Assembly (NCBI GenBank): GCA_003971905.1
Contig: RSEE01000030.1
Span: 496,001 to 560,000, forward strand
From: Moniliella sp. 'wahieum'
Lineage: Eukaryota
DNA: 64,000 nt
Direction: 5' to 3'
Shown here one piece after another: positions 1-60,557 of this stretch. Each line of letters begins with the position of its first letter. Position 1 is the first letter of the stretch. The notes below the pieces were generated by a model. That model ran no database searches. It was not told the origin of the DNA and saw nothing but the letters and a program-made list of their open reading frames with translations. A program made the translations under genes and the position numbers.

Positions 1-318
1 GTCACACGTCAGATCTCAGGATCTCAGAATCGGATCTGAGACACAACAGTGACTGGGGAGCTTGGCTCTGCTCAGCCTGAGCGCTGAGGCTCAGCCCTCG
101 CTGCTGCTTCCGGGGGAATCGCCACGAGAGACAGCACTCGGGCCGAGGGCCGAGCAGTCGGTCCAGTGCTCAGGATCATCGATAATCGATCACTACTCGT
201 AATGCGTAACTTAAGGGCGTTGCAGATTCCAGGAGGACCACAAAAGCACCCGAGAAGCCAATAATGCTAACGTGCTGAAAAGTAGTCACCTCACTTCACC
301 TATGGACACGAGGAATGC

Positions 319-363
319 ATGGTGTATGGTGTATGGTGGGTGTATGGTGTATGGTGTATGGTG
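319..363. repeat. Heptamer microsatellite (TGGTGTA)n, about 6 copies with one interruption
   Basis: Direct read: atggtgtatggtgtatggtgggtgtatggtgtatggtgtatggtg. Confidence 0.85.
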
Positions 364-550
364 CACCTTTGTCCCATGGCAGCTGCTGCAGTGAGCCTTA
401 TGCCGCTTTTTCCGAACGTGTACAACAGTGCCGGCGGTTTGCCCTATTACTAGGAGGCTAGTGGTTGCCCATTGCTGCCTGGGGCTACTTCAGGCTACTC
501 CCTGGATTCATGGACATCATGCATAGGACGTCATGCGTTACTGATCCTTC

Positions 551-603
551 AAGCTTCAAGCTTCATCGATGATCATTAACACCATGCATCATGCATCATT
601 AAT
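551..603. repeat. 7-bp-period palindrome arrays AAGCTT-C-AAGCTT-C-ATCGAT and ATGCAT-C-ATGCAT-C-ATTAAT
   Basis: Direct read; hexamers at 551, 558, 565 and 584, 591, 598. Confidence 0.85.
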
Positions 604-2249
604 CATTCTTGAAGCTAAAAACTAGTCGCCAGTCTCAGTTCACCCTATTCTTAGTCCTCATTTCCTCCGCATGGTGGCTGTGGCATGTCCCACATGTCAT
701 GCATCACATATCATGCATCACTCCTAACTGTCACCTGTTGCGCATCTGCATCCCGCCACCCACATTGGTCACCGGCCCTTGGTCCCCGTTTTGCTTGTTC
801 CACATAGTGGTGCATAATGTTTGTCACACAACGGCATCTTCACACTTCATCACATGGGCCTCTGAAGTATTACTGAAAGTAGGGAGAAATAACACAGAAG
901 CGCTGCAATTCCTGGTAACCAGTAACGGTAAGCGGTAAGAGGTAGCCACCCTCTGTATCCACCATCTTTCTCGGCCTCCCGTGCCACATGCATCCTGTGT
1001 TATCCTTTCGCATAGACTTGTGTCGGGTTATGGAAAAAAGATGATCTAACGATCAACGTCCAACCTTCTGCATGATTTTCCCTCTCTCTTTTCGGCGATT
1101 TCAAGAAGCTGCCACCAACCATATTGGATGGAATAAGCCATCGGTTTTTTACCATCAACAGTAGCGCCAACAACATCAGAGCATTAAAAAAGCTAAGGTA
1201 TATATACAACGATGACTCTTCTGTAAATTGGGTACTTATTCCATCTCTTTCCTCGAACTATGCATTATACAGAGGTGGTGTGGTATAGGAAAGTACAGCG
1301 CATCAGGGCCGGCGAGGGCTATATCATAACTGTTGTGTGTATACTCTTCTCAGGTCTCCCACAACGTCTCTCGTCATCCGTTTGTCACGCAGTTCTTCTC
1401 GGCCGTTGTCACTGTGTTCTATATTATGCATGCAGGGTATATGGAGTAACTAGTATAATGATGCATGATGACGCGTTGGATTACCCGCTCTGCGCACTTT
1501 GATCTACATATCTACATGTCTACTTATCCCCTCCCTGCGGCCCATACGGGCTTCCGGGCTTAGTGTCAAAGGCTTTAAGCTCCAAGCTTAATGAGCGCTG
1601 AGCTTCGAAGTCCCAAGCGTCTGTTGACATGGACTTGAAAGAGGCCAGGGCACACACTGTTTTTGTCCAAGGTGGCTCATATTCAATATTCTGAGTGTCT
1701 CGCCGCTTGCCGCTGTGGTACCTGATGTATAGTAGTACGCTGACGCGGGGCACTGAGTACTGATATGGATGGGCCTCCACAAACATGTTACACGTGAGGC
1801 TGAGGTAGGAGGCCTGAGGCACACAATCCTGTGAATACTGAATGCGACAACGCTATCACCCGTTGTAATAGAACGCATGAGATTTCTGTTTGCTTCAAAA
1901 GAGCATTCTCTTCGGTCCCACTCAGGAATACAAGAAACAAACTATCTGAGACAAAGCTGAAAACGAGAGATCGCGTGACGCGTGGTGCTTGACGCTGAGA
2001 CGAGAATAGTTTGCTAGGCCTTGGGCCAGTCTCCCACCCTGGTCGGTCTTTCGTACGTACTCGTTCTTCTGCCTAGGGACCACAGGTACGAAGATCCGAT
2101 GCCAGGAATGCGTTGCGAATGCAGCTGCGTGGTAAGATAGTGACACGGTTTTGTTTGTTAGGAAGGGTGATGCGGGTGATGCGTGTGGGACAGCGCAGCA
2201 CAGCCACGATCTGCCTTAAAATTAACGTTTACATATTTGCATGTTTCCA

Positions 2250-2620: not shown

Positions 2621-2749
2621 TTTCCGGCTCTAACATCTATAGCAGGCGATAACGTTTCCAAACGGTTTTCAGAACAGAGCTCAGAGAAACCCGGTGACCG
2701 GAGACTGGGGATGTCCGATGTCCGGCACAGGTGTGGCTTTTTTAAGATG

Positions 2750-2876: not shown

Positions 2877-3482
2877 TTCCCGTCGAGTCTCGTATAAGGA
2901 AAAGATATGATCGAGGGTTAATATATTCACCCCACACTGGTGCTAGAGAGGGTAGTGCTAGGGTTCACCTGCACTCTCTCAAATGGATCGGTGACGCTCG
3001 CTGGTTCGGGTGATTCGCCCCTTTTGCGCAGAGGCTGCGCCACCCCTTTGTCTGTTCCGACTTGCTTGCCTGCTCTTATCTTCTTCCCTTCAGCTTGCTG
3101 GACTTTTGTGGCTGACTGCCCTGCCTTCTTGCACGCCTTGAAGCTCATCTCTCGTACTGCCCATAGCGTTCCCTAGCCGCACTCCAGCAACTGGGTCTGA
3201 TGTGTAATACAAAATGCATATGAAATGCTCTCCGGTGAAAATTTTGGAGCCCCGTAGGGGAGGGCCAACCACAAGAACATATGTATGGCAAGAAGCATTT
3301 ATAGACCAAAATAGTAGTACCCCAGCACATCCCGATGAGAGGGGGCTACTAAAAGTATTGATTATGAACGTTAAACTAAGCAATTGATGGCGTTCTGGGG
3401 GACAGTGGGGCCGAAAGGATGCGAGTTTTGACTATAAAATTAAGGTGTAACTCGATCTTCTGTTGTGATTCTGTATACTGCA

Positions 3483-3552
3483 TCCATGTCATTGACAGAG
3501 CTTAAGGCTGGAACAGGGAAACGCTGCGTCTAAACGGAACCGTTCATCTTGC
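3483..3552. repeat. Dispersed ~70-bp direct repeat, copy 1 (copy 2 at 5746-5817)
   Basis: tccatgtcattgacagagcttaaggctggaacagggaaacgctgcgtctaaacggaaccgttcatcttgc aligns by eye with the 5746-5817 segment. Confidence 0.75.
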
Positions 3553-5745
3553 GGGAGTTACTTGGTAGCGCCACCAAGGTTAAGGAACCAGGGATATCGC
3601 TAGGATATCAGCACACAGGACGCGACAATCAAAAAGGTAAAACTGGTACATAAAGAGAAAAGATAAAGGAAATGGGCAATCTTAGTATGAGAGAGTCAAG
3701 CGAAAGATGAAAAGGGGTGAGGATGAAAATCAAACGTCCCGAGCGTCCGTCGTACACTGCGTTTGTTCACAAAATCTCTGTCCACACACAGTGTGGTAAA
3801 AAGAGACTCATCTCCCGTCGTATTAGCTCTATTACATGCCATTAGATAGCCCTGAAGCTCCATTTTGCATTAGAACTAATGAAGGCACTGCAAGGGAGCT
3901 TCGGCCTGACAACAAATAACAAATCCTGAAGCTCTCTGTAGGCAACCCACGTTTCACACTCTGTATGGTCCCACTCCGAGAGGAAAAACGAAGAGTCCTG
4001 CAGTAGGCCGCAGTGCGCATATGCTCGTTAATATCTCATTCGCATATTAACAGTCTCCTGGGAGAATGCGGGCTCTGTCCAACACGTTCCATATGCCATA
4101 TCCATCTCCCCTCAATCAAAGGGTTTTCAGGCTATAAAAATAAAAGGCTTTTCACCAAAAGTCTCTGCCTGTGCTCTTTTCAACTCTAAAAATCCATGCC
4201 GAGCCTCTCCACAGGCATGCATGAATAGTGTGGGTTGTTTGTACACGCGCTGTCATAGAGTTGACGTTGTTCGGTGGCGCTTCTAGCAGCAAGCCCCATC
4301 TCAGGTGGCCCGCCACAACGCCTATCGACTATATATGATGAAAAGTACAACCATATATATAGGCAGAAGCGCGTCATTCTTAACCATTTATTGCTGCCTG
4401 ATCGATCTGATCGATCCGTCACATGATGCATCACATTCATCACGAGCATCACGGATGGACCAATCCCGAGAGGATGAACTAGTGATATTGATACTGCCTT
4501 TGTGACAAGCACCTGTCACTGTGCTTGTGATCCTTTTTGCAAATAAATAAATGCAAGACATGTCTCTGCCAGCTTTTTGCAGGTAAGCGGGTGAGCGCTC
4601 GCTGAGCGCGCAGGCGGAACATCAGGTACATCAGGCCTGTTGACCTTCAGGCGCTGAAGCCTCAGGGCATCGGGGTCTCATCAGTCACTAGTCACCTCAG
4701 ACCAGCAGACCAGGCCTCCGAAAACTCTCCTTAAAGCTTGAAGCTCGAAGCTTTCAAGTGAGCGGTCACATAATGGTCACATGATGGGTCACACGTTCGA
4801 GAACTACATATATACGAAGACACATACAAGTACTTTTCCCTTCGACTGTACCATGTCACAACTGGGGCTACGCGAGAAAGATCAAGCTCGTATCAAATGG
4901 GAGGTTAGCAACATTGTTCGGGGGAGGAAACGGGAGGCGTAGGGAAGGCAACAAAGGGAAAGGGAAAGGGGAGAGCGAGAAGCTTGGTATGCGCGCAGAA
5001 TTGGAAATTGGAGAGAGAGGTTGAGTCTCATTCGGTGAGACATCGACTTACTAATAAATCTTTTGCTGCAGCCCAACGTGGGCCTCTGATACCCGTGTGT
5101 TGAAGTGTCAGAAAGTAGCAAGTGAATAATGGAGAGAGAACGATGGATGGCACTACTACTGACGAAGAGAGAGAAACACAGGAGGTGCTTTGGAATGAAA
5201 GAACAGGGTATTATATGTATATAGTCGAGAGAACCGCTGAGAATAGATAGAGTCGTCCGCACCATGACTAATGAGAGAAAAAATGGGATATATATGAAAG
5301 CGAGCCCAGTTGGCGGATTGTGGAAGTGAGGAAGCCCAGCTCACGGCAGCGGGGGTAGACAAGAGATGAAAGACAGGACTAGGATAGTCGTCACAGGAAA
5401 CAACGAGGAATAAAAGCGAGAAGAAAAGGCAAAAATATGAAAACGAAAAAGGCGGAAACAGAGATACTGAAGAGATGCACATCAGTGGTCAGAGAACACA
5501 TTTGGTTAGGGAAATACCAGAATGAAGATGACTCCTTAAGTTAAGACCACTCCGGGCACATATCCATCCAAAGGCATAATCGAACACCACCCGGAGTCAG
5601 AGAAAGTACAGAAGGAAAGTAAAAGTTGTGGTGAGAACAGATCCAAACACTCCAAATTCACTTATACCACATCACTTTCAACAACACACTACGCAAGATA
5701 TACCATTGTTGACACACATAGATGAAGGGGTGGTATGTAGTAACT

Positions 5746-5817
5746 TCCATTCATTGGCAGACTTAAGAAGGCTGGGACAGGGGGAACGCTACGTCTAAAC
5801 CTAACCGTTCATCTTGC
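5746..5817. repeat. Dispersed ~70-bp direct repeat, copy 2
   Basis: tccattcattggcagacttaagaaggctgggacagggggaacgctacgtctaaacctaaccgttcatcttgc. Confidence 0.75.
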
Positions 5818-6102
5818 TATATATACCCTTTCGGTGCACACATACCCCTGCCTACTATGAACTACCGCAACGGAATTTTGGGTAGATGACATTTGATGGG
5901 GCCCGCTATATCGTTTCAGGGCTGCGGACTGAACGGCCAGCCTGCTTCGCAGGACAAAGGGTTCAAGATTGGATTTGCTGAATGTTACCGACGGTGAGTG
6001 GCGCGAGGGGATGAGTAGGTGTTGGGGGACGAAGTGCGTATGAGAGAATCACAGCTAATAGAAGGAGGGAGAGGCAACAAGTCCTCATACGCGTCGAGCA
6101 AT

Positions 6103-10040: not shown

Positions 10041-11375
10041 TCACGCACCCACTCCCTCAGAGTCGAACATGGAGGAACCAAAGTCAGCGCCGTCAAGGTC
10101 AAAGAACCCAGCATGCTCTCCAGTTGCTCATCAGAACCACCCATGTCGCCCAACCCAGAAAACGAGAAGCCGGTTGAATTTGGTGCCGGGGCCAACCCAG
10201 TCCCGTCATTAGAGGGAACCGCAGCTGGTGCGTTGGCAATATCGGCTGCCATCGAGGCGGCCGGATCCTTTGTATTGGTGGAGGAGCCCGACGTGGCAGT
10301 GGCATTGAGCATTGCATCTGCAGTCGAAAGGGTGTCCATTGACCCAGGAGGGTGAGCGGGCGTGGCACCAGAAACATCGAAGGTGGGACTCCCTGAAGGT
10401 GGTGGGTTTGAAGCGAGAGCTGGGCTCGACGACGTCCCCGTACTTGTCGAATTGTCTGCTTGCCGCCCAGACTGCGCTTTATTTGCAGTCGTCTTGGTGG
10501 AGCCTTTGCGGGCGCGGGCGGCGGGTCTACCTTTCCCACGCGATGCAGTATCCGATCTGCGAGTAGATACGTGACCAGCCAGAGGCCCAGAGCCGCCAGG
10601 GGTAGCTGCCACGCCGGGTGATGCAGTGTTAGGCCCAATTGCGCTTGCGGAGACTGTGCCATTCCCTGGCCCGTCGCTGGGAGCGGTGGGACCATCAAGG
10701 GTGCAGATTGCTGTTGTCCCTGTCCCTGTCCCAGCCTCATTTGAGCTTCCCCTTGAACAGAGCTGGGTGCATCTCCTGGACGGCCAACCCCCGCCGCGAG
10801 AACTTGCTGCTCACCAGCGCCAGAGTAGAACTCCGACATTTCCTGCATCGGCAACTGTTCCGCACCAGCCTGGGAGCGTCATCGCCTCCAGCTCCTGCAA
10901 CCGAGCGCGATACACGCCCACCTCAGCATATGCTTGCTGCGACACCTGCTCCGATGTCGCTCCCTGGGCCCGGGAAAGCTCCGCTTTGATGGCCGCCTGG
11001 AGTTGCTGCACCTGGGCAAGCATCTGCATCCGGTTCGCAGGCATACCAGCTGATGCGGCCCTGCTATGCGGGGCAGATGGAGCACCCCCCTGGTTGGAAG
11101 CCTGCATAAGCTGCCCCACTTGAGCAGACGACGCCCCGGAGTTCTTGCGTTGTTGGGCGCCATCATAGTCATTCTGCATGGGCAGCCCCCTGAAGAGCGG
11201 TGATTTCAGCATGGTGTTTTTGTTGCTGCTGTTGCTGCTGCTGCTGCTGCAGTAGTTGTTGCTGCTGTAGTCGATGCTGCTGCAACTGCTGCTGTTGTAG
11301 TTGCTGCTGCTGCAACTGCTGCTGTTGAAGTTGCTGTTGCTGTAGCTGCTGCTGCTGTAGTTGCTGTTGCTGTAG

Positions 11376-11418
<43 letters not shown>

Positions 11419-19260: not shown

Positions 19261-20578
19261 ACACCTGAGCGTCCGATGGTGGTCAGGCTATATTCCCGTA
19301 ACTGTGGCCAGGTGCCAAAGGGCCAGTTTTGGTTGTCCGATTGGCTCGCTTTATGCCACGGGGGCAGTTAAGAGTAGCCCCGGGGATAACCCGGGCCGCC
19401 GTTGGAAACTTTGAGCGGTGTTGGGGTTACGAGGGTGCGTCCCGCATGTTCCTCCATGTGTCTGCCCGTTAGCGGGGGGAAGGCTGCGGAGGAGTGCGAC
19501 TGGGCAGTACTTTCTGGCACCTACTGGGGCACTGCGGACATACCCCCCAAGCGCGCACGAGGCCTCTTCTGTGCCTGCCCTTCTCTCCCTCCTGTGCTGA
19601 CCGGTGACCATTATCGCGGGCTCTTTTGGCTTCCCTCAATATCCCAATCCTTCGTTAGGTCTTAGGTCTTAGGCCCTTCCCGCTCTTATCGTCTGGTGTG
19701 ATACTCGCCACAATCCTAGGGTGTGGTTAGTAGGATCCACGGCGCAACACCGTCCGCGCTCAGTGCCCCGGCGCGTGGTGGCAGCCTGCAGCATGGTCCC
19801 CTGTTTCGTTTGCGACTATCAAAGTTTCGAGGGCAGCACCAGGCCAGCACCACCCCAGCCTCAGATCCTTCCTGGCAGTACAGCAGTGTCATGTCTTGTT
19901 CCGTGGGCTGGGCACTGCAGTCGAGTGTCCTCTAGTGCCCAGCGCCCGCCTGCAGACAGGCGCTGTGAAGCGACAAGCCCTGCCCACGCAGGGGCCAAGG
20001 AGGAATCCGTGGCGGGAAGGTGGCACGAGGGCAGCGAAAGACCCGCCAGAGCTGCGGCAGGCCGCCGTGGCTGTGGCGTCTTGGCTGGGGTGCGGGCTGG
20101 CAGGAACCAGTTGGTACAAGTGCTCCTCCGCGCGGGCGCACTAGGCCCTAGGGCCAGGCGCTAGATACTCCACGTGACTATTGTGACTAGTGACTGGGTG
20201 GCTAAGTGACCAGTGAGTGCGACAAGAGTGGCCCCGGGTGGCCCTCGCCGAAGGAACGCCTGAATCTCAGGGCGAAACACCCGAGAGCGAGGCTCTTCCA
20301 TTGCGAGCCCAGAACGCAACGCCAGGCACAGAAACAGCAGGCATTTTTTCTTTGGCTCGCCCCCCCCCCCCCCGCTACCAAACCCACTCCAGTGCAGGAT
20401 AGCAAACGCGCAGGAACTAGCCCGGCCTTTTTTAAGCCGAGCGCGTAGCCCCTCTGTCGCTTGTTTTTGCGTCCCTTTGGCCTCTCCTTCCTTCTCCGCC
20501 ACCTCCTCCCTTTCTGAGCTCCCTGCTCCGACCATATCTTCCCGTCGTGAACGTTGAACCTCCTTGCGCGTCTCCGCC

Positions 20579-22244: not shown

Positions 22245-23313
22245 AAGTTGTGCCTATATCCCTTCACGCCTTGCGTTTCCGTCCTCTTCCTCCCCTCTGA
22301 TGGGTAGAGACAGAGGTTTGTGGGTCATCTGGGTCGTGTACAGTGGGACGCGTTGCCCCCCCCCTCGGCTTTTTAGCCCTTGTAGCAGACTGTTGACCTA
22401 GGTCTTGCCTGCATGCATTTTCCTCTCTACATGTCACGATACGCGTCACGGTCCTCGTATCATATCTTCCGTCTGTATATCTGTACTTAATTGTGATACT
22501 CTCGCTGAGGATGCCACCGCCCCCTTTCACAGGTCAGTAGACTCCATTTGAAAGCCGTCAATAGATAGGAAGAAGCACCTTATCGAGAGCCCTTCCACCA
22601 AACGATACGAGCGTGGCTACTAGCGACAGGCTCCCATCGAGGCTTGACAGGGGTGCACGTATATGCGGTCCCGAGGAGAAGAGACAACGAGAGAAGTGAG
22701 AGGCGTGGAACAGAAGAAACGAAAAAGATGCTAATCCACTAATGCACTGAGGCTCTGTCGGAGGATCTAGACCAAAGAGCCAGCCGTCCTGTTGACTCAC
22801 TTGTAACTACGCAAAAGAAAAACAGCCATTCTTGCTTCAGGTCTCCCCCCCGTGTGAGTCCTGGCAAGGTGTGAGAAGAAAATGCATTTGGTCTCTTCTG
22901 GACAAGCGGTGGCTTCGGCCACCGTCATCGGTTGCACCGATATGCGACGCGGCCCGGCGGTCCAATAGACCTGGAACAAGATGGGTGCATGTGCCGTGGC
23001 ACAGAGCTTACGGACGAGCTGGCAGCAAACACTACCACACAGAAAGGCGAACGACTCATATTCCCCACGTTGCCCCCGACACAAATTGCCCTGGGAGGCT
23101 ATAGCAACAACTGTGTGCCGATACATACGAACTTCTAGAAAGTGATGTGAAGACTAATTTCATTTTCGTCAACAGAAAGGTGAAAGGTCAGAGGTCAGAT
23201 CTCAGACGATCTCAGAGGCCTGTCGGAAACGGATAGGCCGTGTTGTTCCAAGAAGTCCGCTCGTCTGGGACGCACATAAGGTGGGCTGGCTCATGGGATG
23301 TGCTGAACTATAA

Positions 23314-23394
23314 GGACGGCTGGCGCAATGGTAGCGCGTCTGACTACGACTGGTTGTAATCAGGAGGTTGCAGGTTCGACCCCTGCGTCGTTCG
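23314..23394 (+). tRNA. tRNA-Arg(ACG) with 9-nt intron (23350-23358)
   Basis: Acceptor GGACGGC/GTCGTTC, D-arm GCGC-AATGGTA-GCGC, anticodon stem TCTGA/TCAGG with CT-ACG-A, T-arm GCAGG-TTCGACC-CCTGC; T-run downstream near 23413. Confidence 0.92.
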
Positions 23395-24208
23395 ACCCGA
23401 CAGGGCGTCCTATTTTTGCCGCTGTGGTCAATGGCATCACGCATCAAACCTTCAGAACTCCATCAGTGCATCAGCTCCGCCCACCCATCGCTCATCGAGG
23501 TTGAGCATATCATGATCAACCCACATTTGTGGAACCCGCACGAAATGGCAGCCGTTGAAGCGGCCCTCGTGCTGCTTGAGCAAACAACGCGTCCGTGCTC
23601 GGGTCATGGTTGAAGCTGCCGCTACCAAACGAATGCCTCCCAGGTGTCCAGTCATATAAGATGATGATTGAATATATTGATGCCACATCCCCCCGAACCG
23701 CCCACATCGAGGGACATTGATGTTGATGAGATATCAGAGTGGGGCTGAGAAAAGGACCCTGAGGATTGACGGGACAGAGATCTATGATACGTTATGCAGG
23801 CCAAAAAGGTATTGGGGGAAAAGGGTGTGCAAGGTCAAATGAACACAGGGACATAAGGGACGGTTCTGTGCAACGGAAGAGAGGAGAGGCGAATCCAAAA
23901 ACGCTACAAGACAGACAGGTCCGGAGAACAAAAGGAAGAGTGCAATGGTATCTTTACTGGTTGCAGCAAGGCAAGACATGTGTGCGCCACGGAGTGCGAG
24001 GCCGTAAGGAAAATAGAGGCAGGAGGAGAGCGGGCGCGGGGGGGGGATATCAGCAAGGGAGGTTGTGGGTCCCATATGACGTAAACGCATCTTACTCTGC
24101 CCCAAGGAGATGGAGAGGACAACCGGCTCACCTGCGGAAGAGATGGTGGGCGGGATGGTAGGGGTCATCCATAGTTCGGGATGGGGGCGGAGTTTGTCCC
24201 GCACCAAA

Positions 24209-26010
<1,802 letters not shown>

Positions 26011-26279: not shown

Positions 26280-27375
26280 CTAATTAATAACCGGTACAGC
26301 ATGTGTGCATCCTGATGCATGATGCATACAGAAAGCGTGATCTGTGACCGGGGTATGTGAAGGCTCTTGTTGTGGAGGTGACCTCATCTCCACAGGAAGA
26401 CTGGCGCCGTGCGCTGGATGCAGACCAGCTGGTTGCGGGCGCCTCGGGACTGTCCACACGGCGCCTGTGTAGGGGGGGTGCGCTTGTTTGCGCCCGCGTC
26501 GGCGGGACATCCAGTGATAGATCAGCGGTTGCGCAGCGCGTACGCCTCAGGGGCTCACCGGTCGCCGGTACCGGTCACCGGTCACCGTCGACCATCGACC
26601 ATCGACTATCGCGCGCCGATGCTGACTCACACTGCGGCCCCGTGCCCCCGGCGGTGAGGATGTGAATGCCCATCCCACCCGCACTTTGCCGGGCCGACTG
26701 CTGCGCTCTGTTGCTGGGACGCAGCCGCGGGGGCGGATGCGAACCCTGTGCCCCCCTGCGGGGAGGCGCAGATTGGAAAGCATGTACATGTAATTGCCGC
26801 TGGTCCCGCCGGCAGCCCGCCAGCCACCCCAAGCGCCATTTCCGCCGACTGGCGCTGTGCCGATGATAGGTGCCACGCCCAGCAGCGGCTGCGGCGCGGG
26901 GGCAGAGGGGGGAGATTTCGGTCATGCTGTGTTTGATGACGTTGGCTAGTTGACTATGCCATGTGGCATGTGGCATGTGACAGATGATGACTCCTGTCGC
27001 ACAGCGCGAGAGGGAACGCGACGATGCGGAGACAGCAGTGATGGTTTGGTGACGTAGGCGAAAGCGCCCATGGCTGAAAGATGCGACGTATGTCCTTTTT
27101 CTACTCGCAGTCCTCATCGAGTGTGACATGTGATGCATGTGACATCCCATGTGACACACCTGCCTCCATCTCCGTAGCTCCATTAGCTCCATGCGTGCCG
27201 TGGAACATGTGCCACGGGGTAATGGCTATGAAATTCACCCAGGGGGAAAACGACAAACACTCCCGCTAGTGACTAGTGACTAGTGACGTCACTCGTACGC
27301 CAGCTTGCACCCCCTTTAAGCTTTACCCCGGTTTCTCCCCCCCAGTCTAGCCCCGGTTACCGGTTACCGGTTAAG
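26280..27375. repeat. Cluster of 7-bp-period palindromic arrays upstream of the MAPK gene
   Basis: ATGCAT-G-ATGCAT (~26315), ACCGGT-C-ACCGGT-C-ACCGTC-G-ACCATC (26570), ACTAGT-G-ACTAGT (27272), ACCGGT-T-ACCGGT (27359). Confidence 0.8.
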
Positions 27376-29844
27376 AGCCCAGTTGCTACCCTAGCACTGG
27401 TCTGGATCGGATCGCACGAGAGATCCAAGGCTCTATTTCGACGCTCAACGAACGAACTCCGAGCGTATCATCCCCACCACCACGGTTCACAGTTCACTGT
27501 TTTCACTGTGTGTACTTACATTTTATCTCTTGGCTTTGCCGGCCTCTGTTGCGCTACAAATCAATCCCCCACGATGACTTTTGATTGTTGCCCACAACTC
27601 AACACAGGCGGCGTCATCTCGGAGGCTGGCTATGTCCCATCAGAATCAGCCCGATATATACCATCAGTTCAAAAAGGTGCCCGGTCGCCGCGGTCACACG
27701 GGTACCGAACACCGCTCAACGTGCTCAACATCCAATTTCCTATACCTAGTCGTACCTACCGGCTACCCCGGACATCACACAGATATGGGATGTGTATAAT
27801 GCCAGTTTTGGGGCCGGAGTGCTATGTTTGACGCTGTGAACTTCAATCTGGTGATTGATCAGGTCTGGTGCGTGTGGTGTGTAATTACGGGCCCTACGGG
27901 CCCGCGAGTCCCGCACCCGCAGCACACACACTGTGGTTGCACCCCAGCTGGAGAAGTCGTGGATTCTGGGGGGATGTGGAGAAGTGGGGAAACTGCATGT
28001 ATGCCTACCCTTAATATTTAATTGGCAATTGCTGTGAAAACAACACAAATCACTATAGTCACTGTGCGTAAGGAAGACATTATATTGAAGGTAATGCATA
28101 ATGGTAAGGGCCAGTAGGGACAAGATCAGACCAAGATAAGCGAATGATTTGGGTGGAGAAAACCCAAGAGGAAGTAGAAAGTAATTCAATGGCGATGGAA
28201 GTGGCCAGGACCAAGTCTCATCCAACAGGTATCATGTCGCCCCAAAAAGAACTATAGGGGTTCGAATAAGCCAGCACACTTATAGATACAAGTGTGTGAA
28301 TACAAAAGCCTGGCAAGGTACGCAATATGTCTCTTTTCCGGGGTGCGTAATAGGATAAGGCGGGCCACAGCAAAGAGCATCACCTCCTATGCCAAGTGGC
28401 TCCTGTGTACCCTGCACCCTGTACGAGGTAAACCGACCCGCTCGCGCTCCCCCCCTCGACCATCGGCCTGCTTTCTGGAGCGATCTTTTTGCTGCAACCA
28501 ACGCCTCCCAGTCTTGATATGAGACTCCCCCCCCTACCATCCCCTTACTGCAGCTGACACCCCAGACAGGTGGACCACACATGCGGGCCAGAACACAACC
28601 CTTGTTGGCCCTCGCTGTAAATGTGAGCCAGGGAGGACGGGAGGAGAGGGCCTCTCTCTCCAGTGTCTTCCCCGCCCACAGTCTTTTGCCGCTAAGATTC
28701 GTTTACTGCAAAATCAGGAGCACAGGCACCGTGATTTGCCACGCACGTACGTCCCTCGCGCGACAGCTGGCATCAAGATCGTTGATCTGCGTTGGGATGG
28801 AGCCAGCATAAGGAATGCGAAGATGCCTATAAGAAAGGGTCACTACCAGCGCAAAGAAGACTTGAACGTGTGGTCTCATCGACGATCATCAGTATGCCTG
28901 TGTTGGGCTTCGCTGTTTCGCTCACAGCGCCGTTGTCGCGATCGCAAAACTTCAGTTCAGCACCTTCGGAGACGCCCCATGTGAGCTGCGTTATTATCGG
29001 TATGCCTAAAAACTTCGGGGACTTCTTTTTCCGGCTTGGCTTGACGCCCGATGCACTCTTTGCGCTCTTCCCTCCGCGTCTTTCGGAGCGGGGGCTTTTT
29101 GCGTTGGATTTGTTCTTCTTCTATATCCACATTTTGTCCTTATATGTGTGGGGGGTAGCAGAGACTTCTGCATCGCGGCTATGCAAAACAGAAGGTAGAG
29201 GCCGAGGGGGTAGGATGAGGGAGAAGGCTGAGTAGCGTCTAGTGGCTGTACAGTGGTGACAGATGGCTGAAGGGCTTATATAGAGTGACTCGGGGGGCCG
29301 CCACGCGCTCGTGCCCATCTATCCGATACACTGCCCCCACGCTTGCTTCTTGACGCGTGACGCGTGACGCCTGTCCCACCTCTGCTTTCAACGTTCAATA
29401 TTCAATGCTCAGGCACTCAGGCCGTTGAACGTTGAGGTTCAGCGTCCAGGGAGCGGCAATGCCACAGCCTGTATAAACTAGAACCCAACCTCGCCTTCTT
29501 TCCCTCCTCCTCTCAACTATGTCATCCACGCCAGCAGCAATCATAGCCATGATTGCGAAGTCGAAGAAGATCGGTTGGTGCATTCCCTATAGTCAATGAT
29601 TAATGATGGCCATTCGAGCTCATGTAACACGCCACGACCGGCGCGATCAGCAGAGCAGTGAATCACAGATGAGGGGGGAGGGGCGTGGGGCGCGCACGGC
29701 ATCTGTATCAAAAGCCCCTGTGTACTTGGCGCCTGAGTCGCGTTGCAGTCTATATGGGCAATCCATATCCTTCCCTCTTCCCATCGGCCCCATCCGCCTA
29801 TTATCCTATCACCACTCCACACCATCCTGTTTCGCATCAGAACC

Positions 29845-34687: not shown

Positions 34688-35409
34688 TCGCGCCATGATG
34701 GCGACGATTTTTCCACGGGCCCGCGTCTCCAGGCCAGGGGTTCACCTCGGTTCCATCCATTGACTTCTGATTGACCGCCGCTATCGCTTTTGCCCTGTGC
34801 CGCACTGGGCCAGCGCCCTAGTTTGGCCTTTTCTCTAGCTGTTTCTGCACCGAAGAGCCCACGCTGGTGACGCCAATCCCATCCCCTTCTCACTTTTCTC
34901 ACCTACCGCGCATGGACGTGCCCTCTCGCTTGGTCAACACGGGTGTTGCCAACAGACTGGTAGGGTGTGGACGCATGGATACTTTTTTTGCGAAAGACCA
35001 AATCAAGAATTGGTCTGTGGCTGTCTCTTTCGGGCCACTGATGTGCTTGCTATTGACCCCTTTTCTATGCTGTATCCCCTTCTGCCTTCTTGCTCCCAAG
35101 GCAACTTGCTTGCCCTCTTGCTCGATTGGGCCCATCCTGTTTATTCTTCCTTCAGTCCACAGCTACCATTTTTTAGAATAGTTACTTTAGAAGGGATTCA
35201 TCATCAACCTTGAGGTCAGGTATATACATCAGGATCTGCGTCAGAGTGAAGAACCCCGGCAGAGCTCACTCAGTATTGTAGAGGCTATACAATAAGACCA
35301 AAAGTATATACCAAGTACCAAGCACGGAAGAAGTAAACAAAAGAGAAAAGTTGTATTTTGGGGGTAAAACATGTGGAACCAAAACGCAAAACTCTTCAAC
35401 GCAACTTCA

Positions 35410-37730
35410 TAACCTAACCGGTAACGGTAGCAATTGAACCGGTACCCGGGATCCGGTACCCTCTGCAAATCCTCTGCAAAGATGCACCCCCCCCGTCTAG
35501 CTGACTCAGTCAGTACTCAGTAACTGAGTAGGGCCTCACCTCTGAGATCCCGAGTACTGAGTCTCATCTCAGACCTCAGACCTCAGTGTGCTGAAATTCA
35601 GCTCTCTCAGCATCTCAGTTGGTCGTTGGTCTACGAATGCTCGCTTGTTCCCGATGGCCGATAGAGACGCTGTGCAACCCAGGCCGTCTGGATGGCGGAC
35701 CCGTCTGGGGGTGGGGTCTGGAGGGATCCGAAGTGTCCGCAACGGAACGCAAATGCATGCATTGTGACTTGTGACATGTGGGGTGGCACATCACATACAT
35801 CACATGTGATCATGTCCCGCATGCCCCATTGCCACCTGTCACATGTCACAAGTCACGAGGTCATATGGTTGTCACATGTCAATTCGTACGGCACGGACAC
35901 GGAACCCCCCGGCGGCTCCTTGGTCCAAGGAGCAGCAGGTGGCAAACCTTGGCTAGTCCGGCCTGCTTTAGCTCAAGCTCAAGCCGAGAATGGGGAGGAC
36001 GCCCGTGCTGGACCTGACGTTGAACTGAAGTTTAAAATTCGAAGCTTGAACGTTTTGAAGAGCTTGAAGCTTGAAGCTATTAGCGCGAAACGGCAACCGG
36101 TAACCGCGTAATCCGCGCGTAATCCCCGAAGAAGGACGACACGGACGGTACTGTGTGACGCGGGACGTGGTGAGCAATGCACAATCGTTTGCTTCTCTGA
36201 ACGCGGCAGAGGGCTACGGCGTAGTGCGCTTAACGTATAGCCTGGGGCCTGGTGTAGCGCATTGTGTAGCAGCAACCTTGATCGGGCGTGGCGTAACCGC
36301 GTAACCGCGTAACCGGTAACCTACGTAACGCGTTACGCGTTATATACGAGGACGGAAGAGAGGGACAGTGTGGCGCGAACGTTTTGATAATGAAGCTTGA
36401 AGCTTGAAGGGTCTGATGCAATGGAACATCACATGTATCACAGTGACATGTGATATGCTATTGACATTGTCCCATTGACATGCACAGTAGCCTACTGTAG
36501 CGGTCAATCAGGCCAAGCCTCTGTCTGGTAACCGGTAAGCGGTAACCAGTAGCCGGTAGCAATATACCGGCAAAAGCGGAAGACTTGAAGCATGACGTGT
36601 GACATGTGGCATGTGACGCGTGACGGACAACGGCAATTTCAAGCTCTCCCCGGCGTGCATGATGCATGATGCATGATGGACTGCGACAATTAGCTATTCG
36701 TCTCCACCTCTCGATCTTCCTGTGCAGTGCGTTTTGACTAGCTGCGTAGTAGGGCATATCGCCCGAGGGACCGACGGCGGCGAGTTTGGCGCGGCAGCAG
36801 GGCGATCGCATGCAGTGGGGAGCTGGAAGAGAGAGAAGGGGTGCCACTGGGGTGCCCCCTTTGTTCCCACCCGCCGTGCGCTGCTGTACGTGGGACGAGA
36901 ACCGCGGCGAGCGCGGAGGAGCAGTGGAGCACAGTGGAGGAGCACTCTGCTGTCGGATCTGAGATCTCAGATTAGATTTCAGGTATTCGATGCTCGGTGT
37001 CGGGTGGTACGTACGTCAGTGCTGTGAGATCTGAGATCTGAGGTGCCGAGGACACAGGACCCGTCCTGGGCTGCTGCAAGCAGCTGCACAGCTCTGGCAG
37101 GGTCGTGCCCTGCTGTGCGCTGCACGGGCTCGTGCGAGACACAGATGTGGCGGGCAACAGGCCCCACTGGTCCCGTGGGCCACATGCCCCCGAGGTGGCA
37201 GGGTCTGGCAAGCCAGGGTAGCGCTGGGCTGCGCTGGGCTAGTGCGGGCTGTGCTGGGAGGGCACTGACGCTGCCCGCTGCTGAGCGTTCGGCAAGCAGG
37301 GTGTGAGACGCAAGGAAGCCGGGTGGCTGGGCTGGTGTGGCAGGCACCGAACGGGGGGTGGCAGTGGGGTGGCGCATGGCTGGCGGGGCGCTTGATGCTG
37401 ATGCGTGATGCATGGGCCCTGCAGCTGAGCTCAGCGCTTTGCAGTGGCCAGTGGGGGGGGGAGGGATGGTTGATGCCTGAGGATCGGTGATGCATGATGC
37501 GTAACGTGTGACATGTGACATGTGATTCCGAGGGACGGGTGGCGTCGAGACAAGTGCTGGGCGGGGATGGTGTCGGAGGGGAGGCAACGTAGTGTTTTCG
37601 GGTCGCTTGGGTGCTGGAGGTGTGCATGCTGGGGACTGGGCTGGCTGGGCTGGGCTGGGCGTGGACAGGTGCACCGTCGCCTGCTGCGGCTGGAGCGTGA
37701 AGCTTGAAGCTTGAGGCGAAGCTTTGGGAC
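35410..37730. repeat. Largest cluster of 7-bp-period palindromic arrays, upstream of the histidine kinase gene
   Basis: AAGCTT-G-AAGCTT (36393), ACGTGT-G-ACATGT-G-GCATGT-G-ACGCGT (36595), ATGCAT-G-ATGCAT (36662), AGATCT-G-AGATCT (37027), ATGCAT-G-ATGCGT-A-ACGTGT-G-ACATGT-G-ACATGT (37490-37523). Confidence 0.85.
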
Positions 37731-37999: not shown

Positions 38000-38071
38000 C
38001 CTTCTGCCTTCTGCCTTCTGCCTTCTGCCTTCTGCCTTCTACCTTCTACCCTCTACCCTCTGCCCCCTGCC
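38000..38071. repeat. Heptamer microsatellite (CCTTCTG)n decaying to CCTCTAC
   Basis: Direct read cttctgccttctgccttctg...ccttctaccctctaccctctgcc. Confidence 0.9.
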
Positions 38072-38219
38072 ACCTCCGCCCTTGCCTTGCCTGTCGCGCC
38101 GCCACCGCCGCCGCCACCACCATCACCACCACCTCCTCCTCCTCCTCCGCCCCCCCATCCCTCCTCTCCTCTCTCCCCATCTGCCTCGCCCCCGGCGGCG
38201 AGAGGAGCCCCTGCCCCCC

Positions 38220-48557: not shown

Positions 48558-50207
48558 TTAGGTCGCCTTGGGTTTGTCCTCCGTCGAAGCTTCCGAGCTT
48601 GGTTCGTCCTCCACCTCGGTCAGCGTCGCGCCATGCTCCGCCTTGTCCTCTGCATCGTCGTCCTCTTCCGAGGCAATGTGCGCCTCGTAGATCTGGTCTC
48701 CCTCCGACGAGGTGCCGGGGCCCGGGCGGAGCACAATGCCAGCGCCAGCAAGCGCTTGCGCCAATGCACCGGGTAACCGCAACCCCGACCCTTCGTCATC
48801 ATCTTGTCCGCCCTGCAAGTCGCCAGCCAAGGCAGAGAAGATGCTCATCGGCGGACCACCCTGTCCGCCCAGGCTCAGTCGCACCGTTCCATCCTCCTCT
48901 TCCTCGTCCTCGTCGCGTCCGAGCCGTCGGGCCCAAGCCCAGTCCCGCCACGCGAACGGAACACCTCGGGGATCGTCTCGGGTGTATCCCATCCAACCTT
49001 GTTGTCGACGCGCTCCTTGATCCAGGCATAGTACTCCTCCTTCGTCCGTCCACCCAGCAAGGCCACAATCTCAATCGTCATGTTGTCGCATCCAATGCCG
49101 CCCGCCTCCGAAGGCGGCGCAAGGCACTTGTCCATAATCTGCTCGCACAGAGCCTTGGGTTCCTCGCCCTTGGCCAGACCGCGACGGACAAAGTCCACCA
49201 CCTGCTGGTTCGAGAGACAGTCCCAGATCCCATCGCAGGCAAGCACCAGGAACTCCTCCTCGCCCGTCACGTCGTGAATGACAATCTCCGGATCGGCCGT
49301 GACAATCTGTTGCTCGGGCGGCAGGTCCGGGTTCTGCTTAAACTCAAAGTCGCCAATCGCGCGCGACAGGGCCAGGTTGCCATTGACCCGACCAAACTCG
49401 ACAAAGCCACCGGCAGCGCAGATGCGCGCATTCTCGTCCGGGTTGGTAGGCTTGTGGTCAAACGACATGGGCTTGGCCTCGCCCTGCAGGGACAACACAC
49501 TGCGCGAATCGCCCGAGTTGGCCACATAGATTCTCCGTGCCACTTTTTCTGGCTTGTCCGGCTGTGGCACCTCGTTCGCCTTCTCCTCAGCCGTCTTGGG
49601 CGTCTTGACTAGCAGCGCGGCCACCGCCGTACACCCACTCGGGTCTTGCGCATACTGCGGCGACGCACGCAGCGCCTCGTCAGTCGCGAGGAAGGCACGC
49701 TTGAGCGCAGCCGGTAGTCGCCCTTCTTGTACTCCTCCGTCTCAATCAGGCGCGTGTGCACCGTCTTGCCGGAGAACTGGGCGACCGCAGAGCCTAATGT
49801 AGCAACCACACACGTCAGACACCATGAGGGGTGGGGGGGGAGGGCAAGAAAAGGGAGAGGGGTACGTACCGCCATGGCCGTCATAGACAGCAAAGAAGCT
49901 GGTCTTTTCGTCGCCGACTTTGCCGTCGAGGTTGAGGATGGTCGCATGGGCATCCTCCATGCCTGCCAGAACGCAAAGCAGAGTCAATACGAGGGAGGAT
50001 GTGAGAGGGGGGAGGGGAGAGGGGACCTACCCAGACGCCAGCCTTGCATCTCCGAACAGCATAGATGATGGTGTCGTCCTCATCAAAGAGGGTGTGCTGG
50101 AGGGGAGAGGGAGGGGGGGGGGGTCAGTCAGATGCGGCGCGGGCAGGGCAGAGGCGGGGGGAGGCGGCGCACCTTTTCGGTGATGGGTTCGAGAGGGTCT
50201 GGCCCAT
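48558..50207 (-). CDS. PTC2: Type 2C protein phosphatase Ptc2/Ptc3; three short introns in the 5' part (first 50097-50172)
   Basis: MGQTLSEP, MQGWR, MEDAH, FFAVYDGHGG, SGCTAV, YVANSGDSR, SFDHKP, GRVNGNLALSRAIGDFEFK, FLVLACDGIWDC, GIGCDNMT. Confidence 0.92.
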
Positions 50208-53420: not shown

Positions 53421-53509
53421 GGGTTCGTGGTGTAGTGGTATCATGCCTCTTTAGGGTTCTTTGTTCCCGCTGATAGAGGTGGTCCTCGGTTCGATCCCGG
53501 GCGGACCCC
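53421..53509 (+). tRNA. tRNA-Pro(AGG) with 17-nt intron (53457-53473)
   Basis: Acceptor GGGTTCG/CGGACCC, TGGTGTAGTGGT A-box, anticodon stem CCTCT/AGAGG with TT-AGG-G, T-arm CTCGG-TTCGATC-CCGGG, followed by a T-run terminator. Confidence 0.9.
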
Positions 53510-54900: not shown

Positions 54901-55045
54901 ACTAGTTACTAGTTACTAGTTAAGCCAGCCCTCGTCACATGATGTGACGTCACGCGTCACGCGTCACCGGTCACCCGTCCCGCACTCACAGAGCGCACTG
55001 CTTATGCTACAAGTATGCCACTTCACGCCTTCCTCAGGCCTCAGG
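54901..55045. repeat. 7-bp-period palindromic arrays between SWP1 and SNF7
   Basis: ACTAGT-T-ACTAGT-T-ACTAGT (54901-54920), ACGCGT-C-ACGCGT-C-ACCGGT (54952-54971), cctcaggcctcagg (~55032). Confidence 0.85.
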
Positions 55046-57080: not shown

Positions 57081-57472
57081 CGTGGCAGACGTGGCAGAAC
57101 CGTCCTGTTGATCCAAAACCGCGACGCGGGAATCCGGCGGCCGCTTATTACACTCGCCTTGCACGGGTGCAGTGTGTGATCGCCAACACGGCCCAGCCAG
57201 CGCGTCCAACACTGGTCCTCTGCTCTGCGCAGCGCAGCGAGTCGGGCTGAGCAGCCACAGGAGCAGTGCCCGCAGTGCCCGTTCACCGCTCAGCCGCTCA
57301 TCGATTATCTCGCTCGCTGCGGCCACAGTGGAGGCTGAGATGAGCGATCGGAGCATCGCTGAGGCCGCGACGCTCGATGAGGCCCCCAACAGCAGCCTAT
57401 AGTCCCCAGCACCTTCCAGCTCCCTCCTACCACCCCACCGCCACGGCCATCACCACCACCACCACTACCACC

Positions 57473-59139
57473 ATGTCTGCGTACCCACCATACGGAGACC
57501 GCCCCCTCAGCCCTGTCGATGCGGCTGCTCTCTACGATCCCCCCCAGGACATGACCGGGCTCGGCTCGCATGGCGGTGCGGGGCTGCAGCATGTGGGGCA
57601 CACGTCAGGCGACTCGTGGGGCGCAGGGTACCATGATGCCCGGCCTAGCCAGTCAAACATGATGTTTGCCGAGACTGAGGAGGATGAGCGTCGGCAACTC
57701 GAGATGGACAAGGGCGGGTTTGGGTTTGACGTGAATAAGGTCCCCAAGGACCTCTACACCCCGGCCGCTGGCAACCCTCAAGCCCCCCTACCCTTCTCTC
57801 CAACGTGACCGGGTCCACCTCTCGCCCACCCGCCGGAGAGGGAGACTCACGGGACGGATATGGTCCAGCCAACAAATTTGCTGACCCCACCGGGTACAGC
57901 TACCCCGAGCCCCTGAGCAAGGGACAACGACTGCTCCAAGCTCTTGGCCTACGCCCGATCCATCCCCAAGTCGCCTCGCAAATGCGCCAAAAAGGCGTGT
58001 ATCGAAGACAACGGTATGCTGTATTTGCCTACATATTGGCCGTTATCTACATTGCCATCCTCATTGCAGAGTTGGTGCAATCATCACAAAAAACCGGCTC
58101 CGCGATCCAGACTAAACCTTCGATCAACCCTATGATTGGACCGGGCGCGATCTTTTTGATCAACTTTGGTGCACGTTCCGGTGGCTGTATGCGTCCCATG
58201 CCCGGCATCGATCCGGCCACATTTCAAGTCCCTTGCTTGAACGTGTCCAATGCCATCGCTACCACCCAGGCTTCTCACCAGTGTTCTCTCGCCGACATTT
58301 GTGAGCTGAGCAACCCGACGGTCCCCAACCAAACCTGGCGCCTCTTCTCCCCTATTGTGTGTTACCCATACTCCCTCTCTGAGTTTGCTACTGACTTTAG
58401 CCCTTTCAAGTTTATGCACACGGGCGTGATTCACTTGCTGGTCAACGTAATTGTGCAAGTTACCCTATGCGCTGAAACCGAGCGTCTCTTGGGCAGCTTG
58501 ATCTTCCTTCCCTTGTACCTTCTTGGTGGTGTTGCGGGCAACCTACTCGGAGCCGATTTTGGCTTGGTCCTTCAAACGAGTGTGGGGGCTTCAGGGGCCA
58601 TCTTTTCCTCGATCGGGGTGGAGATGGTGGATATCGCATACAACTGGCAGTACGAATGGCGCGCGGGCACTCGTCTCTTTGGCACCCTCGTCATTGCCAT
58701 CATCTCGATTGGATTGGGGCTGTTGCCTTACATGGACAATTTTGCTCACATTGGAGGGTTTGCGACCGGCATTTTTGCCGGTATGGTCGTTTGCTCTTCC
58801 ATTCACCCTTCTCGTTCCCACCGTGCCGCCATCTGGATCTGTCGTCTGATCGGGCTTGGCTTGCTCACTGCCTTTCTGGTTGCAATCGGACTCGTGTCTA
58901 AGAATGCCAAGGACCCTGCGGCAGCATGCCACTGGTGCCGCTACCTATCGTGCCTTCCGGTGTTCAGCCAGTGCAAGGGCAACGGCCTTACCTACACCAC
59001 CAGCACTGGTTCCGGCACCGGCGGGTCCACCTCAGCCTTGCCGTCGGCCTCGGCCTCTTCCCTTGGTGGAGGCGGGGGGGGCAGCGAATCTTACAACTTT
59101 GGTCCTCGTGGCTACCCGACTCCCTACCCCTTGTACTAA
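57473..59139 (+). CDS. Rhomboid-family intramembrane serine protease; frameshift near 57800; probable in-frame intron 58357-58410
   Basis: NPMIGP, FGAR, NQTWRLFSPI-FMHTGVIHLLVN, GGVAGNLLG, SVGASGAIF (catalytic Ser), LLPYMDNFAHIGGF (catalytic His), CHWCRYLSCLP. Confidence 0.88.
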
Positions 59140-59390
59140 GCCACGCTATCAGCCACGCCATACGCCAAGATATCTGCTCCTCTTTCCCTGACGGACCTTG
59201 TGTTGGACTTTGTTTTTTCCTACCTTTCTTCTCCGCGCCGTTGCTCGCATTCAGTCTGAATGGAGCTATACCCTCGGCTAGAGCCTCTCGCACTTGTCAT
59301 GCACACCTGAATGTATCAACCCCCCAATTCGAGTGACCATCCGGAGTTTGCATGGTACTTGCATATCAGTAGAATAGAGTGAGTGAGTGT

Positions 59391-60146
59391 TTATGCGTGA
59401 CCAAACTTGGCTACTGCCGCCTTGCTCTCCTGCAACATGTCCTCGACCAATTTGTCGACAACCGGGTCCATGGGGACGGTCTTGAGCTGGTCGTAGGAGT
59501 ACGAGACGAAGACTTGCTCTGCCCGTAGCACGACGGCCTTTTGCTGGACACTGTAGACGACCCCCTCAAGGGTAGCCTTGGTACGCTTGGCATTGATGTC
59601 GTGAATGGTGCTACCGATGATGCACGTGTCACGGGGTAGACGACAGGCCGAATGTAGCGCAAATTGGCGCCGGCTAGAATAAAACTGGTACCCTTGCCGC
59701 GCAACATGTTGGCAGCTTGTTCGGCCGGCAACCGACGCGCCATCGATACCAGCCAGTTCATCCGGGCCGACTCGAGCCAGCGGAGGTAATGGACATTGTT
59801 GACGTGTTGGAACTGGTCATGGTCGCCCCAGCACACGCGCTGCGTCCACAACGAAGGAACATCCATTCCCATCTCGGCCATACGCAGCTTGGCCTCCATC
59901 ACCCCGCCCGTTCCTCCGCTCGTTTTCGGCCAGAGCACGGACGACAGCTGCATCTTTCCCCCCGTCAAAGCTCTCTACCTCGCTCTCCAGCGCGGCCTGG
60001 ACCACGGGCGAAGGCTTGGGTGAGGAGGCAGAATGAAGGGCGCGGGCGGTTGCTGGACGCAAGAACCGACTGGTGTTGGTGGACCGGGACAGGACGGAAC
60101 GCAGGCCGCTGTGCAGCATGGGCGGCGTGACACGGAGCACCGACAT
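59391..60146 (-). CDS. Hotdog-fold (4HBT-like) thioesterase with mitochondrial-type presequence; frameshifts
   Basis: Arg/Ser-rich N-terminus; VCWGDHDQFQHVNNVHYLRWLESARMNW; ILAGANLRYIRPVVYP; VYSVQQK; YDQLK. Confidence 0.8.
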
Positions 60147-60557
60147 GGTCGATGGTGGGCGAACGCAAGGGAAGAGTACCGGACAGGAGGCGTGCTGCGT
60201 GCTGGCTGAGTGGGTGGGGAAGCGAGATGGGCGGGTTCCCAACGTGATGTCCTCAATCTGTCGGGCCGAGCACCCGAGTCGCCGGGCCGGCTTGCACTGG
60301 GGAGCCGGATCAATCATCAGGATCAGGATCAACGAGGGTCACGTTTTCAACTTTCAACGTCTGAGGCCTGCCTGGGCGCCTGAGAACCCAAGGCCGGATG
60401 TAGGTGGGTTGGATGCGTACGTAATGGGGTACTTGAACGTTTGCTGCTCCTCGGGCTCGGCGGCCGGTTGCGCCGGGCCGCGGCAGGCGTTGGCTGCCTC
60501 GGCTGCTGTGAGTTGGGTGTGGGTCGAGCGCCACCGAGCGTCCCCACCCCCACCCCC

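Follow-up and report, generated by a model that had tools for sequence, protein, structure and literature searches.

Short palindromic arrays with a 7-base period occur in the non-coding DNA of Moniliella sp. 'wahieum'. In this study, we analyzed them in a 64,000-nt stretch (contig RSEE01000030.1, hereafter C30, positions 496001-560000; "the window") and in larger samples of the same assembly (GCA_003971905.1; 69.5 Mb, 223 contigs, named here by C and a number). We consider it highly probable (roughly 0.85) that the arrays are footprints that built up through repeated excision of cut-and-paste transposons. Their lineage, related to EnSpm/CACTA (CMC clade), would insert at NN-TNA-NN with a 7-bp target site duplication (TSD). 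Sites are written below as ab-TNA-cd, with a prime denoting the complement.

The 7-base pattern and its elementary event

A sequence-only reading of the window had described the unit as a 6-bp palindrome, beginning with A and ending with T, plus one free spacer base. All hexamers it named were present where it had placed them, with a single shift (AATATT lies at 29397, adjoining AACGTT at 29390), and 60 block-wise (local) dinucleotide shuffles of the window bore out the enrichment. Pairs of A..T palindromes with a 1-nt spacer occurred 31 times (shuffle mean 0.57, maximum 2), 23 of them as the same hexamer repeated, whereas the other 15 classes of initial letter and spacer length (0-3 nt) gave 0-5 pairs, within the shuffle range. 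The autocorrelation of T-N-A at lag 7 was 244 against a background of ~115, in agreement with the period. The motif TNA + palindromic 4-mer + identical TNA was found 81 times, compared with 2.9 in shuffles, and none of the 81 units lay inside the ~29 kb of genes (approximate limits, drawn by hand), as had been suggested by eye. Moreover, 35 of 76 window units were letter-identical in contig C13, the separately assembled second haplotype of this region. Since the units avoid genes and recur in C13, a sequencing artefact is disfavored, and the 7-base pattern is confirmed as a real feature.

The proposed unit was in the wrong frame, however: the palindrome derives from the two host bases beside T-N-A, and the spacer base is copied rather than free, since the two T-N-A copies share it in 428 of 531 units (364 kb). 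In the same 364 kb, a palindromic filler was present in 531 of 1,285 T-N-A doublets at lag 7, compared with at most ~7% for every other gapped pair. The earlier repertoire of 15 out of 16 palindromes became 16/16 fillers in a 632-kb sample, in which the one reported missing was present in 4 cases. This sample contained 538 arrays (0.85 per kb), of which 437 had one unit; most arrays are homogeneous and short.

The elementary event is ab-TNA-cd to abTNAcd + d'c' + TNAcd, or the mirror image. Among 294 isolated doublets with distinguishable flanks, 55 were of the right type (abTNAcd-d'c'-TNAcd) and 55 of the left type (abTNA-b'a'-abTNAcd), with 1.15 expected for each; together, the flank predicted the filler in 110/294 doublets (~2.3 expected). 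Inverted arms of 2 nt were enriched (332 vs 4.1 expected), whereas arms of 1 nt (13 vs 14.8) and 3 nt (0) were not. Among the four self-complementary centres, enrichment was limited to T-N-A, and no strong further sequence context was found around the scar sites. Plain 7-bp duplications accounted for only 6/294 at T-N-A; ANT, GNC and CNG centres gave 11, 20 and 16, respectively.

The scar event is polymorphic between the two haplotypes of the assembly, for which the C30/C13 comparison gave 7,142 substitutions in 247,266 aligned columns (2.9%). Among 83 7-nt indels in a 256-kb alignment, 20 were clean pairs of a single site and a scar, and 12 were changes of unit number within arrays; events of this polymorphic kind in the window include those at 19598, 27122, 28011 and 28092. 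Clean pairs had a 5-nt repeat in 14/15 (one imperfect) and a 6-nt repeat in 6. A 5-nt repeat with an inverted filler implies that slippage is unable to create a scar, although it could delete one. Thus, the earlier view that slippage of one unit is insufficient was upheld, with the dominant class repeating 5 nt only and plain duplications being so few; existing arrays may still lengthen in this way.

To what length the target sequence resumes after the inverted bases was scanned at 24,304 sites on both strands, counting symmetric cases twice and first units only. After abTNAcd and two inverted bases, resumptions of 4, 5, 6 and 7 nt were observed in 44, 166, 32 and 25 cases (5.9, 1.5, 0.4 and 0.1 expected), and those of 8, 9 and 10 nt in 3, 0 and 4 cases (0 expected at 8 and at 9 nt). 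Non-TNA centres gave at most 6 cases at 5-nt resumption. One inverted base followed by all 7 resumed bases was found in 35 cases (0.4 expected), and where two whole 7-mers were separated by 1 or 2 nt, the spacer consisted of inverted flank bases in 29/37 and 24/35 cases, respectively. The palindromes in the scars have an even length, and their centre falls exactly on the 7-mer end. This position, together with the cut-off at 7, points to a 7-bp target duplication with flush flank hairpins that are opened ~2 nt past the tip. The same spectrum spoke against an opening 3 nt from the tip combined with T:A pairing, and the scar geometry ruled out target duplications of 3, 4 and 5 bp as well as odd hairpins of the hAT type.

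Replication template switching or fold-back synthesis at T-N-A, with slippage doing the rest, appears very unlikely as the source of the inverted filler. A short switch with 1 nt of microhomology could formally yield the main product, and the 12 unit-number changes may well be slippage; however, the fixed 2-nt arm, the restriction to T-N-A, the exact 7-base cut-off and the matching TSDs of the elements described below would be left unexplained. An enzymatic or mutational process had been one of two options offered earlier. The part that invoked hairpin opening at T-N-A is supported and can be narrowed to excision with a 7-bp NN-TNA-NN duplication, given the flank-derived fillers, the cut-off, the element TSDs and a pair of filled and scarred sites, whereas the part that invoked fold-back or template switching is disfavored.

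Arrays with unlike fillers could be read in the same terms. Of 20 mixed arrays, 12 had a first filler that matched the left flank and a last filler that matched the right flank (chance ~1 in 256), and the remaining 8 matched on one side; the arrays at 589 and 54950 are examples from the window. A mixed array is thus a stack of left and right scars at a single site. Homogeneous arrays could have grown by re-insertion into the palindromic unit or by slippage.

A transposon family with 7-bp target duplications

We identified a family of ~4.9-kb elements with invariant ends CTCACTG..CAGTGAG and an EnSpm/CACTA-like catalytic motif. A pattern placing T-N-A before CTCACTG gave 341 matches (182 for the control), with the terminal repeat family visible among the first 100 listed, and searches without the T-N-A requirement also recovered the family ends. 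With T-N-A not required, it was in register at 14 of the 15 best-matching ends (the exception has two extra bases), and this count includes 7/7 independent sites outside the pattern design (background ~4%). Exact NN-TNA-NN 7-bp duplications flanked 5/6 complete copies. GTTGATG was present twice at both C34:500340-505284 and C29:72158-77127, CATCAAC twice at C35:43991-48846, GATCATG twice at C23:154552-159519, and GATGATG twice around a 378-bp miniature inverted-repeat transposable element (C20:546811-547188); the copy at C11:228241-233089 had unequal flanks, both with T-N-A. The terminal inverted repeats (TIRs) were 78-84 bp long with 88-93% identity, the subterminal repeats were in tandem, and the five long copies had 0-13 private substitutions in ~4.1 kb.

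The long copies contained a Tnp2-type H-x3-H...W..E stretch in broken frames (E ~3e-9 against a profile of 42 Tnp2 proteins), and the central part of the element matched this profile weakly (E 1e-4 to 0.01). The top Atlas match was DUF4218 (0.95, low recognition), and the first catalytic D was not found in the element. Since host genes are also frameshifted and 1-bp indels are abundant in this assembly (2,258 in 256 kb), broken frames are weak evidence here.

Homeologous sites were sought for five copies. First, the empty C46 site corresponding to the C35 copy had a single CATCAAC, which proves the 7-bp duplication on insertion. Second, opposite the C29 copy, with GTTGATG on both sides, C53:392279-392292 (minus strand) reads GTTGATG-CA-TGATG, which is exactly the canonical right-type scar of the 7-mer flanking the element. 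Third, C54 (136.2-136.6 kb) carried ~67 extra bases between two T-N-A 7-mers relative to the C11 copy; this difference is an element-adjacent deletion of ~67 bp ending at a second NN-TNA-NN target. C12 was rejected as a homeolog of C34, as it holds a paralog.

Ends of older relatives with G or C beside T-N-A were found on C12, C15 and C5, all selected by the T-N-A pattern. At C23:153503-159519, the young 4.97-kb copy is nested in an older relative, 1 kb from the end of the latter, and the homeolog of this locus at C8:478694 has the older end only, preceded by two extra bases.

Pfam searches of the genome recovered two Tnp2 genes located between host genes, at C17:556.0-558.8 kb (shared with C62:281-284 kb) and at C34:513.3-516.9 kb. 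Both have a scar-rich upstream region, and the C34 gene is single-copy and lies 8 kb from an element with a 7-bp TSD. A Tilletia Tnp2 query of the genome returned the same two genes and one marginal match, with nothing else. Searches for MULE, hAT and KDZ Pfam domains were blank in the genome, two of the three with silent controls.

Several other candidates were set aside. A 5.1-kb CACTA-like element at C13:351655-356773, with CACGGGCGGG ends and missing from C30, is not the source, its duplication being GA (2 bp); no transposase ORF (open reading frame) was recognized in it. Inverted repeats at C30:622-632 kb were rejected as an element, since they flank a host gene: at 622.7-632.1 kb, a NOT4-like gene lies between diverged ~1-kb inverted repeats (81-89%). 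A hAT or hAT7 identity was rejected on the even palindromes at the 7-mer end; a PF05699 search was also blank but weak, with its controls silent as well. PIF/Harbinger elements (3-bp TNA/TWA duplication) were rejected because the duplication is 7 bp and the fillers come from flanks rather than element ends; no Harbinger Pfam search was made.

Mechanism and the weight of the evidence

The scars could be explained by the following cycle. Insertion at ab-TNA-cd duplicates the 7 bases, as demonstrated by the TSDs and the empty site. Excision would then be flush with the element ends and leave a hairpin on each flank, in keeping with the even palindromes at the 7-mer end. If a host nuclease then opened each hairpin ~2 nt beyond its tip, as the fillers of 1-2 nt suggest, the overhangs would be 4 nt long (c d d' c' and b' a' a b). 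Usually, end joining would preserve one of them while the other was lost or overwritten, with abTNAcd-d'c'-TNAcd or its mirror image (+7) as the product; rarer products (+6, +8, +9) would retain a longer or shorter part of the second copy. These products are seen in the genome, and the enzymes are presumed. The new unit d'c'-TNA-cd would again be a target, now with self-complementary overhangs, so that repeated visits or slippage might lengthen homogeneous arrays, and left and right events on one site would give mixed ones. Within coding DNA, a gain of 7 nt would disrupt the reading frame, which is why scars persist in non-coding DNA alone.

Several observations weigh against this interpretation. 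The scar contexts fitted NWTSAWN in 33/234 cases (14%), compared with 19% in the background, and the young family favors A/T beside T-N-A, a preference narrower than that of the scars; most scars must then have been made by older relatives. The young copies number ~6, whereas the arrays come to roughly 59,000 when the density of the 632-kb sample (0.85 per kb) is extended to the assembly. The searches revealed no intact transposase: the element frames are broken, and both Pfam on five ORF pieces of the element and homolog searches with two transposase pieces were blank. Neither of the two Pfam-found Tnp2 genes has visible TIRs, and the C17/C62 gene is decayed in both haplotypes. De novo scans for TIRs plus TSDs revealed no element with a 7-bp duplication in 664 kb or 918 kb. 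Two of the five homeologous sites were uninformative (no homeolog was recovered for C34, and the inner site on C23 did not align), and the C29/C53 pair is one case. Furthermore, the C29 copy (13 private substitutions in ~4.1 kb) is much younger than the haplotype split, so that this pair needs re-use of the site, transfer between haplotypes or a coincidence at the level of a few percent. Finally, the C30/C13 indels come from a two-way comparison and may run in either direction.

The mismatch in copy number is eased by the low rate of the process. The 20 clean events per 7,142 substitutions amount to ~0.3% of the substitution rate; if the mutation rate is taken to be 1e-10 to 1e-9, a rough calculation gives ~1e-6 to 1e-5 jumps per element per generation. 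This rate also bears on a different explanation, in which NN-TNA-NN sites are cut, and hairpins formed, by a nuclease that belongs to the host or has been domesticated, with no lasting mobile element involved. This could be either a CMC-type transposase acting freely or some other enzyme that cuts with a 7-nt stagger, the surviving elements being bystanders that share it. Such a nuclease would account for ~10,000 scars per surviving young copy and for a scar context broader than that of the young family, and the two TIR-less Tnp2 genes among host genes would be candidates for it. However, a 7-bp duplication with hairpins is what insertion followed by excision should leave, and elements with this duplication exist; the C17 Tnp2 gene is decayed in both haplotypes, with a divergence like that of non-coding DNA; and only few jumps are needed at the above rate. 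We therefore regard the nuclease as unlikely, although less so than template switching.

Beyond excision footprints as such, we favor with moderate confidence a fuller scenario. Here, an undescribed lineage of the CMC clade, characterized by a 7-bp duplication at NN-TNA-NN and by flush hairpins like those of RAG, would have been hopping at low copy number for a long time and would have left scars by the tens of thousands. Short repeats and palindromic motifs in the promoters of this fungus would then stem mainly from excision repair rather than from slippage.

Probable scars in the window and related systems

Within positions 1-57000 of the window, 54 loci (70 units) of TNA-palindrome-TNA had a filler predicted by a flank, all in non-coding DNA (0 in genes). 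Their distribution is relevant to the other option offered by the sequence-only reading, that the arrays are selected binding or structural sites of a symmetry-reading factor. Upstream positions were mildly preferred: a gene start followed within 1.5 kb at 27 of the 54 loci (baseline 40%), and only 2 loci lay within 600 bp of a gene end (baseline 17%). Some units may also resemble fungal promoter motifs. However, insertion into open chromatin would also give an upstream bias, fillers follow local flanks across all 16 variants (the 110/294 above), and only 35/76 units are common to haplotypes 2.9% apart, which argues against general conservation. Selection thus found no support and seems the least probable of the explanations considered, even if single scars may have been co-opted later.

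Stacked and homogeneous arrays were found in several places. A mixed six-junction array at 540-572 has two left-type units (flank CT, filler AGCT) and a switch of N to its complement, and at 587-607 (C30:496589) a left scar (flank CA, filler TGCA) and a right scar (filler TTAA, flank TT) share one TCA site. Homogeneous arrays at 2455-2518 have three units with filler TGCA and two with CCGG. The arrays at 54904-55045, ~230-360 bp upstream of SNF7, include left + left + right scars at 54948-54975 (fillers CGCG, CGCG and CCGG). Another scar cluster (29349-29437) is located 440-520 bp upstream of the CAP gene, and the densest one (35508-37716, 14 loci) is upstream of the histidine kinase gene. A minor-class scar on the minus strand at 23461-23475 (C30:519473) has two inverted bases followed by 6/7 duplicated bases, with an 8-nt period.

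Several scars and arrays differed between the window and the C13 haplotype. At 19596-19609, a clean right-type scar, TGA-CC-GG-TGA-CC, corresponds to a single TGA-CC in C13. Also missing from C13 are a clean left-type scar at 27122-27135, 7 nt of a left-type scar at 4683-4696, 14 nt of a TAA array at 2319-2351, two clean right-type scars at 28009-28103 (TTA-ATAT-TTA and TAA-TGCA-TAA), two right-type units of the densest cluster (36389-36409), and one unit in each of two 2-unit arrays at 27268-27375 (fillers CTAG and CCGG). A 908-bp scar-rich stretch (35354-36262) is missing from C13, with TTGT microhomology at the joint. The C13 alleles at window positions 23056 and 52446 and the C30/C13 alignments showed haplotype-specific insertions of 215-285 bp, comprising pieces resembling solo long terminal repeats with 5-bp duplications and other pieces with 8-11 bp duplications; one insertion repeat end recurs at window ~3480-3610 and ~5730-5820.

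The genes of the window are ALG6/8, permease, kinase, CAP, glutaminase, histidine kinase, EFR3, PP2C, SNF7, rhomboid and MET6. The best named relative of PP2C is from Tilletiaria anomala (72%), and together with the gene content this match indicates a smut-related basidiomycete. This gene (48558-50030) has a near-identical C13 allele (544.6 kb) and a 79% paralog on C4 (1198.8 kb) without synteny, and a HAD phosphatase has several close copies in the genome, which hints at older duplications. ARAGORN predicted tRNA-Val(TAC) at 23314-23394, with a scar array ~120 bp upstream, and tRNA-Lys(CTT) at 53421-53509. Ordinary repeats outside the TNA grammar were a 61-bp direct repeat (2760-2880), (ATGGTGT)n (319-363), (CCTTCTG)n (38000-38075) and a glutamine-coding repeat (11215-11415).

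In the available excerpts of PMC5499845 and PMC5873905, transposases that form hairpins on the flanks (hAT Ac/Ds, Transib, MULE and RAG coding joints) leave P-nucleotide excision footprints, and the hairpin chemistry proposed here is inferred from these systems. The likeness extends to a flank hairpin, host opening near the tip, end joining and one or two dominant footprints with short palindromic insertions; as in Transib, RAG, hAT and MULE footprints, the scars carry the duplicated target and short nucleotides complementary to the flank end. On the other hand, the palindromes of Ac/Ds have as their centre the complement of the base beside the element (PMC5873905), whereas ours are even and lie at the duplication end; excision of Muta1 is >90% precise (PMC5499845), unlike the scars here; and a genome-wide repeat class made of footprints is unreported for flank-hairpin systems in those excerpts.

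With regard to classification, the element resembles CNIRT6 of Cryptococcus neoformans (PMC12810828, in the excerpt available) and EnSpm, Plavaka and ESTA (PMC12730594, likewise) in CACTG in the TIRs, subterminal tandem repeats and a putative Tnp2-like H(3-4)H before the last E. It differs in the TSD, which is 7 bp with a T-N-A centre, compared with 3 bp in CNIRT6 (PMC12810828) and 2-5 bp in the clade (PMC12730594), in the TIR of 78-84 bp (24 bp in CNIRT6; PMC12810828), and in its CT-CACTG termini, with CACTG from base 3, as opposed to the 5'-CAC..GTG-3' of EnSpm/CACTA. By its catalytic motif, the element thus probably belongs to the CMC clade, yet it departs from two defining CACTA features (TSD length and termini). 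According to the excerpt of PMC12730594, hAT7 of rust fungi shares the 7-bp TSD but has a hAT transposase, whereas the catalytic stretch of our element matches Tnp2 proteins.

The published literature, taken as articles without their supplements, yielded no description of the TNA grammar or of a CMC element with a 7-bp TSD. A metagenome scan with one array pattern gave at least 120 loci (40 of them only ~620 bp), none with the grammar among the matches listed, in which the density was at most 0.33 per kb, compared with 1.3 in the window. Flush, RAG-like hairpin chemistry is not known to have been demonstrated biochemically for a CACTA-type enzyme.

If our interpretation is correct, the scars would show in vivo how CACTA-type excision proceeds chemically and how a fungus opens hairpins, pointing to flush, RAG-like hairpins for a CACTA-type enzyme. 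A single transposon lineage would have left natural footprints by the tens of thousands, a very large record of hairpin opening and joining in a basidiomycete. The TSD range of CACTA/CMC elements would grow from 2-5 bp (in the excerpt of PMC12730594) to 7 bp. The '10-bp repeats' of Ustilago maydis have been suggested to be transposon footprints (PMC4081816, in the excerpt available). By description, that smut fungus offers a similar setting, with small intergenic repeats, few transposable elements and a footprint hypothesis, and its repeats may follow the same grammar. Beyond that hypothesis, our analysis provides an element with its filled/scar pair, an unselected family-level TSD count, an empty site and a stacked-scar test, and a concrete rule is now at hand for testing the U. 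maydis suggestion. Small repeats between the genes of other smuts may have arisen in this way too, and a few elements would be able to rewrite promoters without a rise in copy number.

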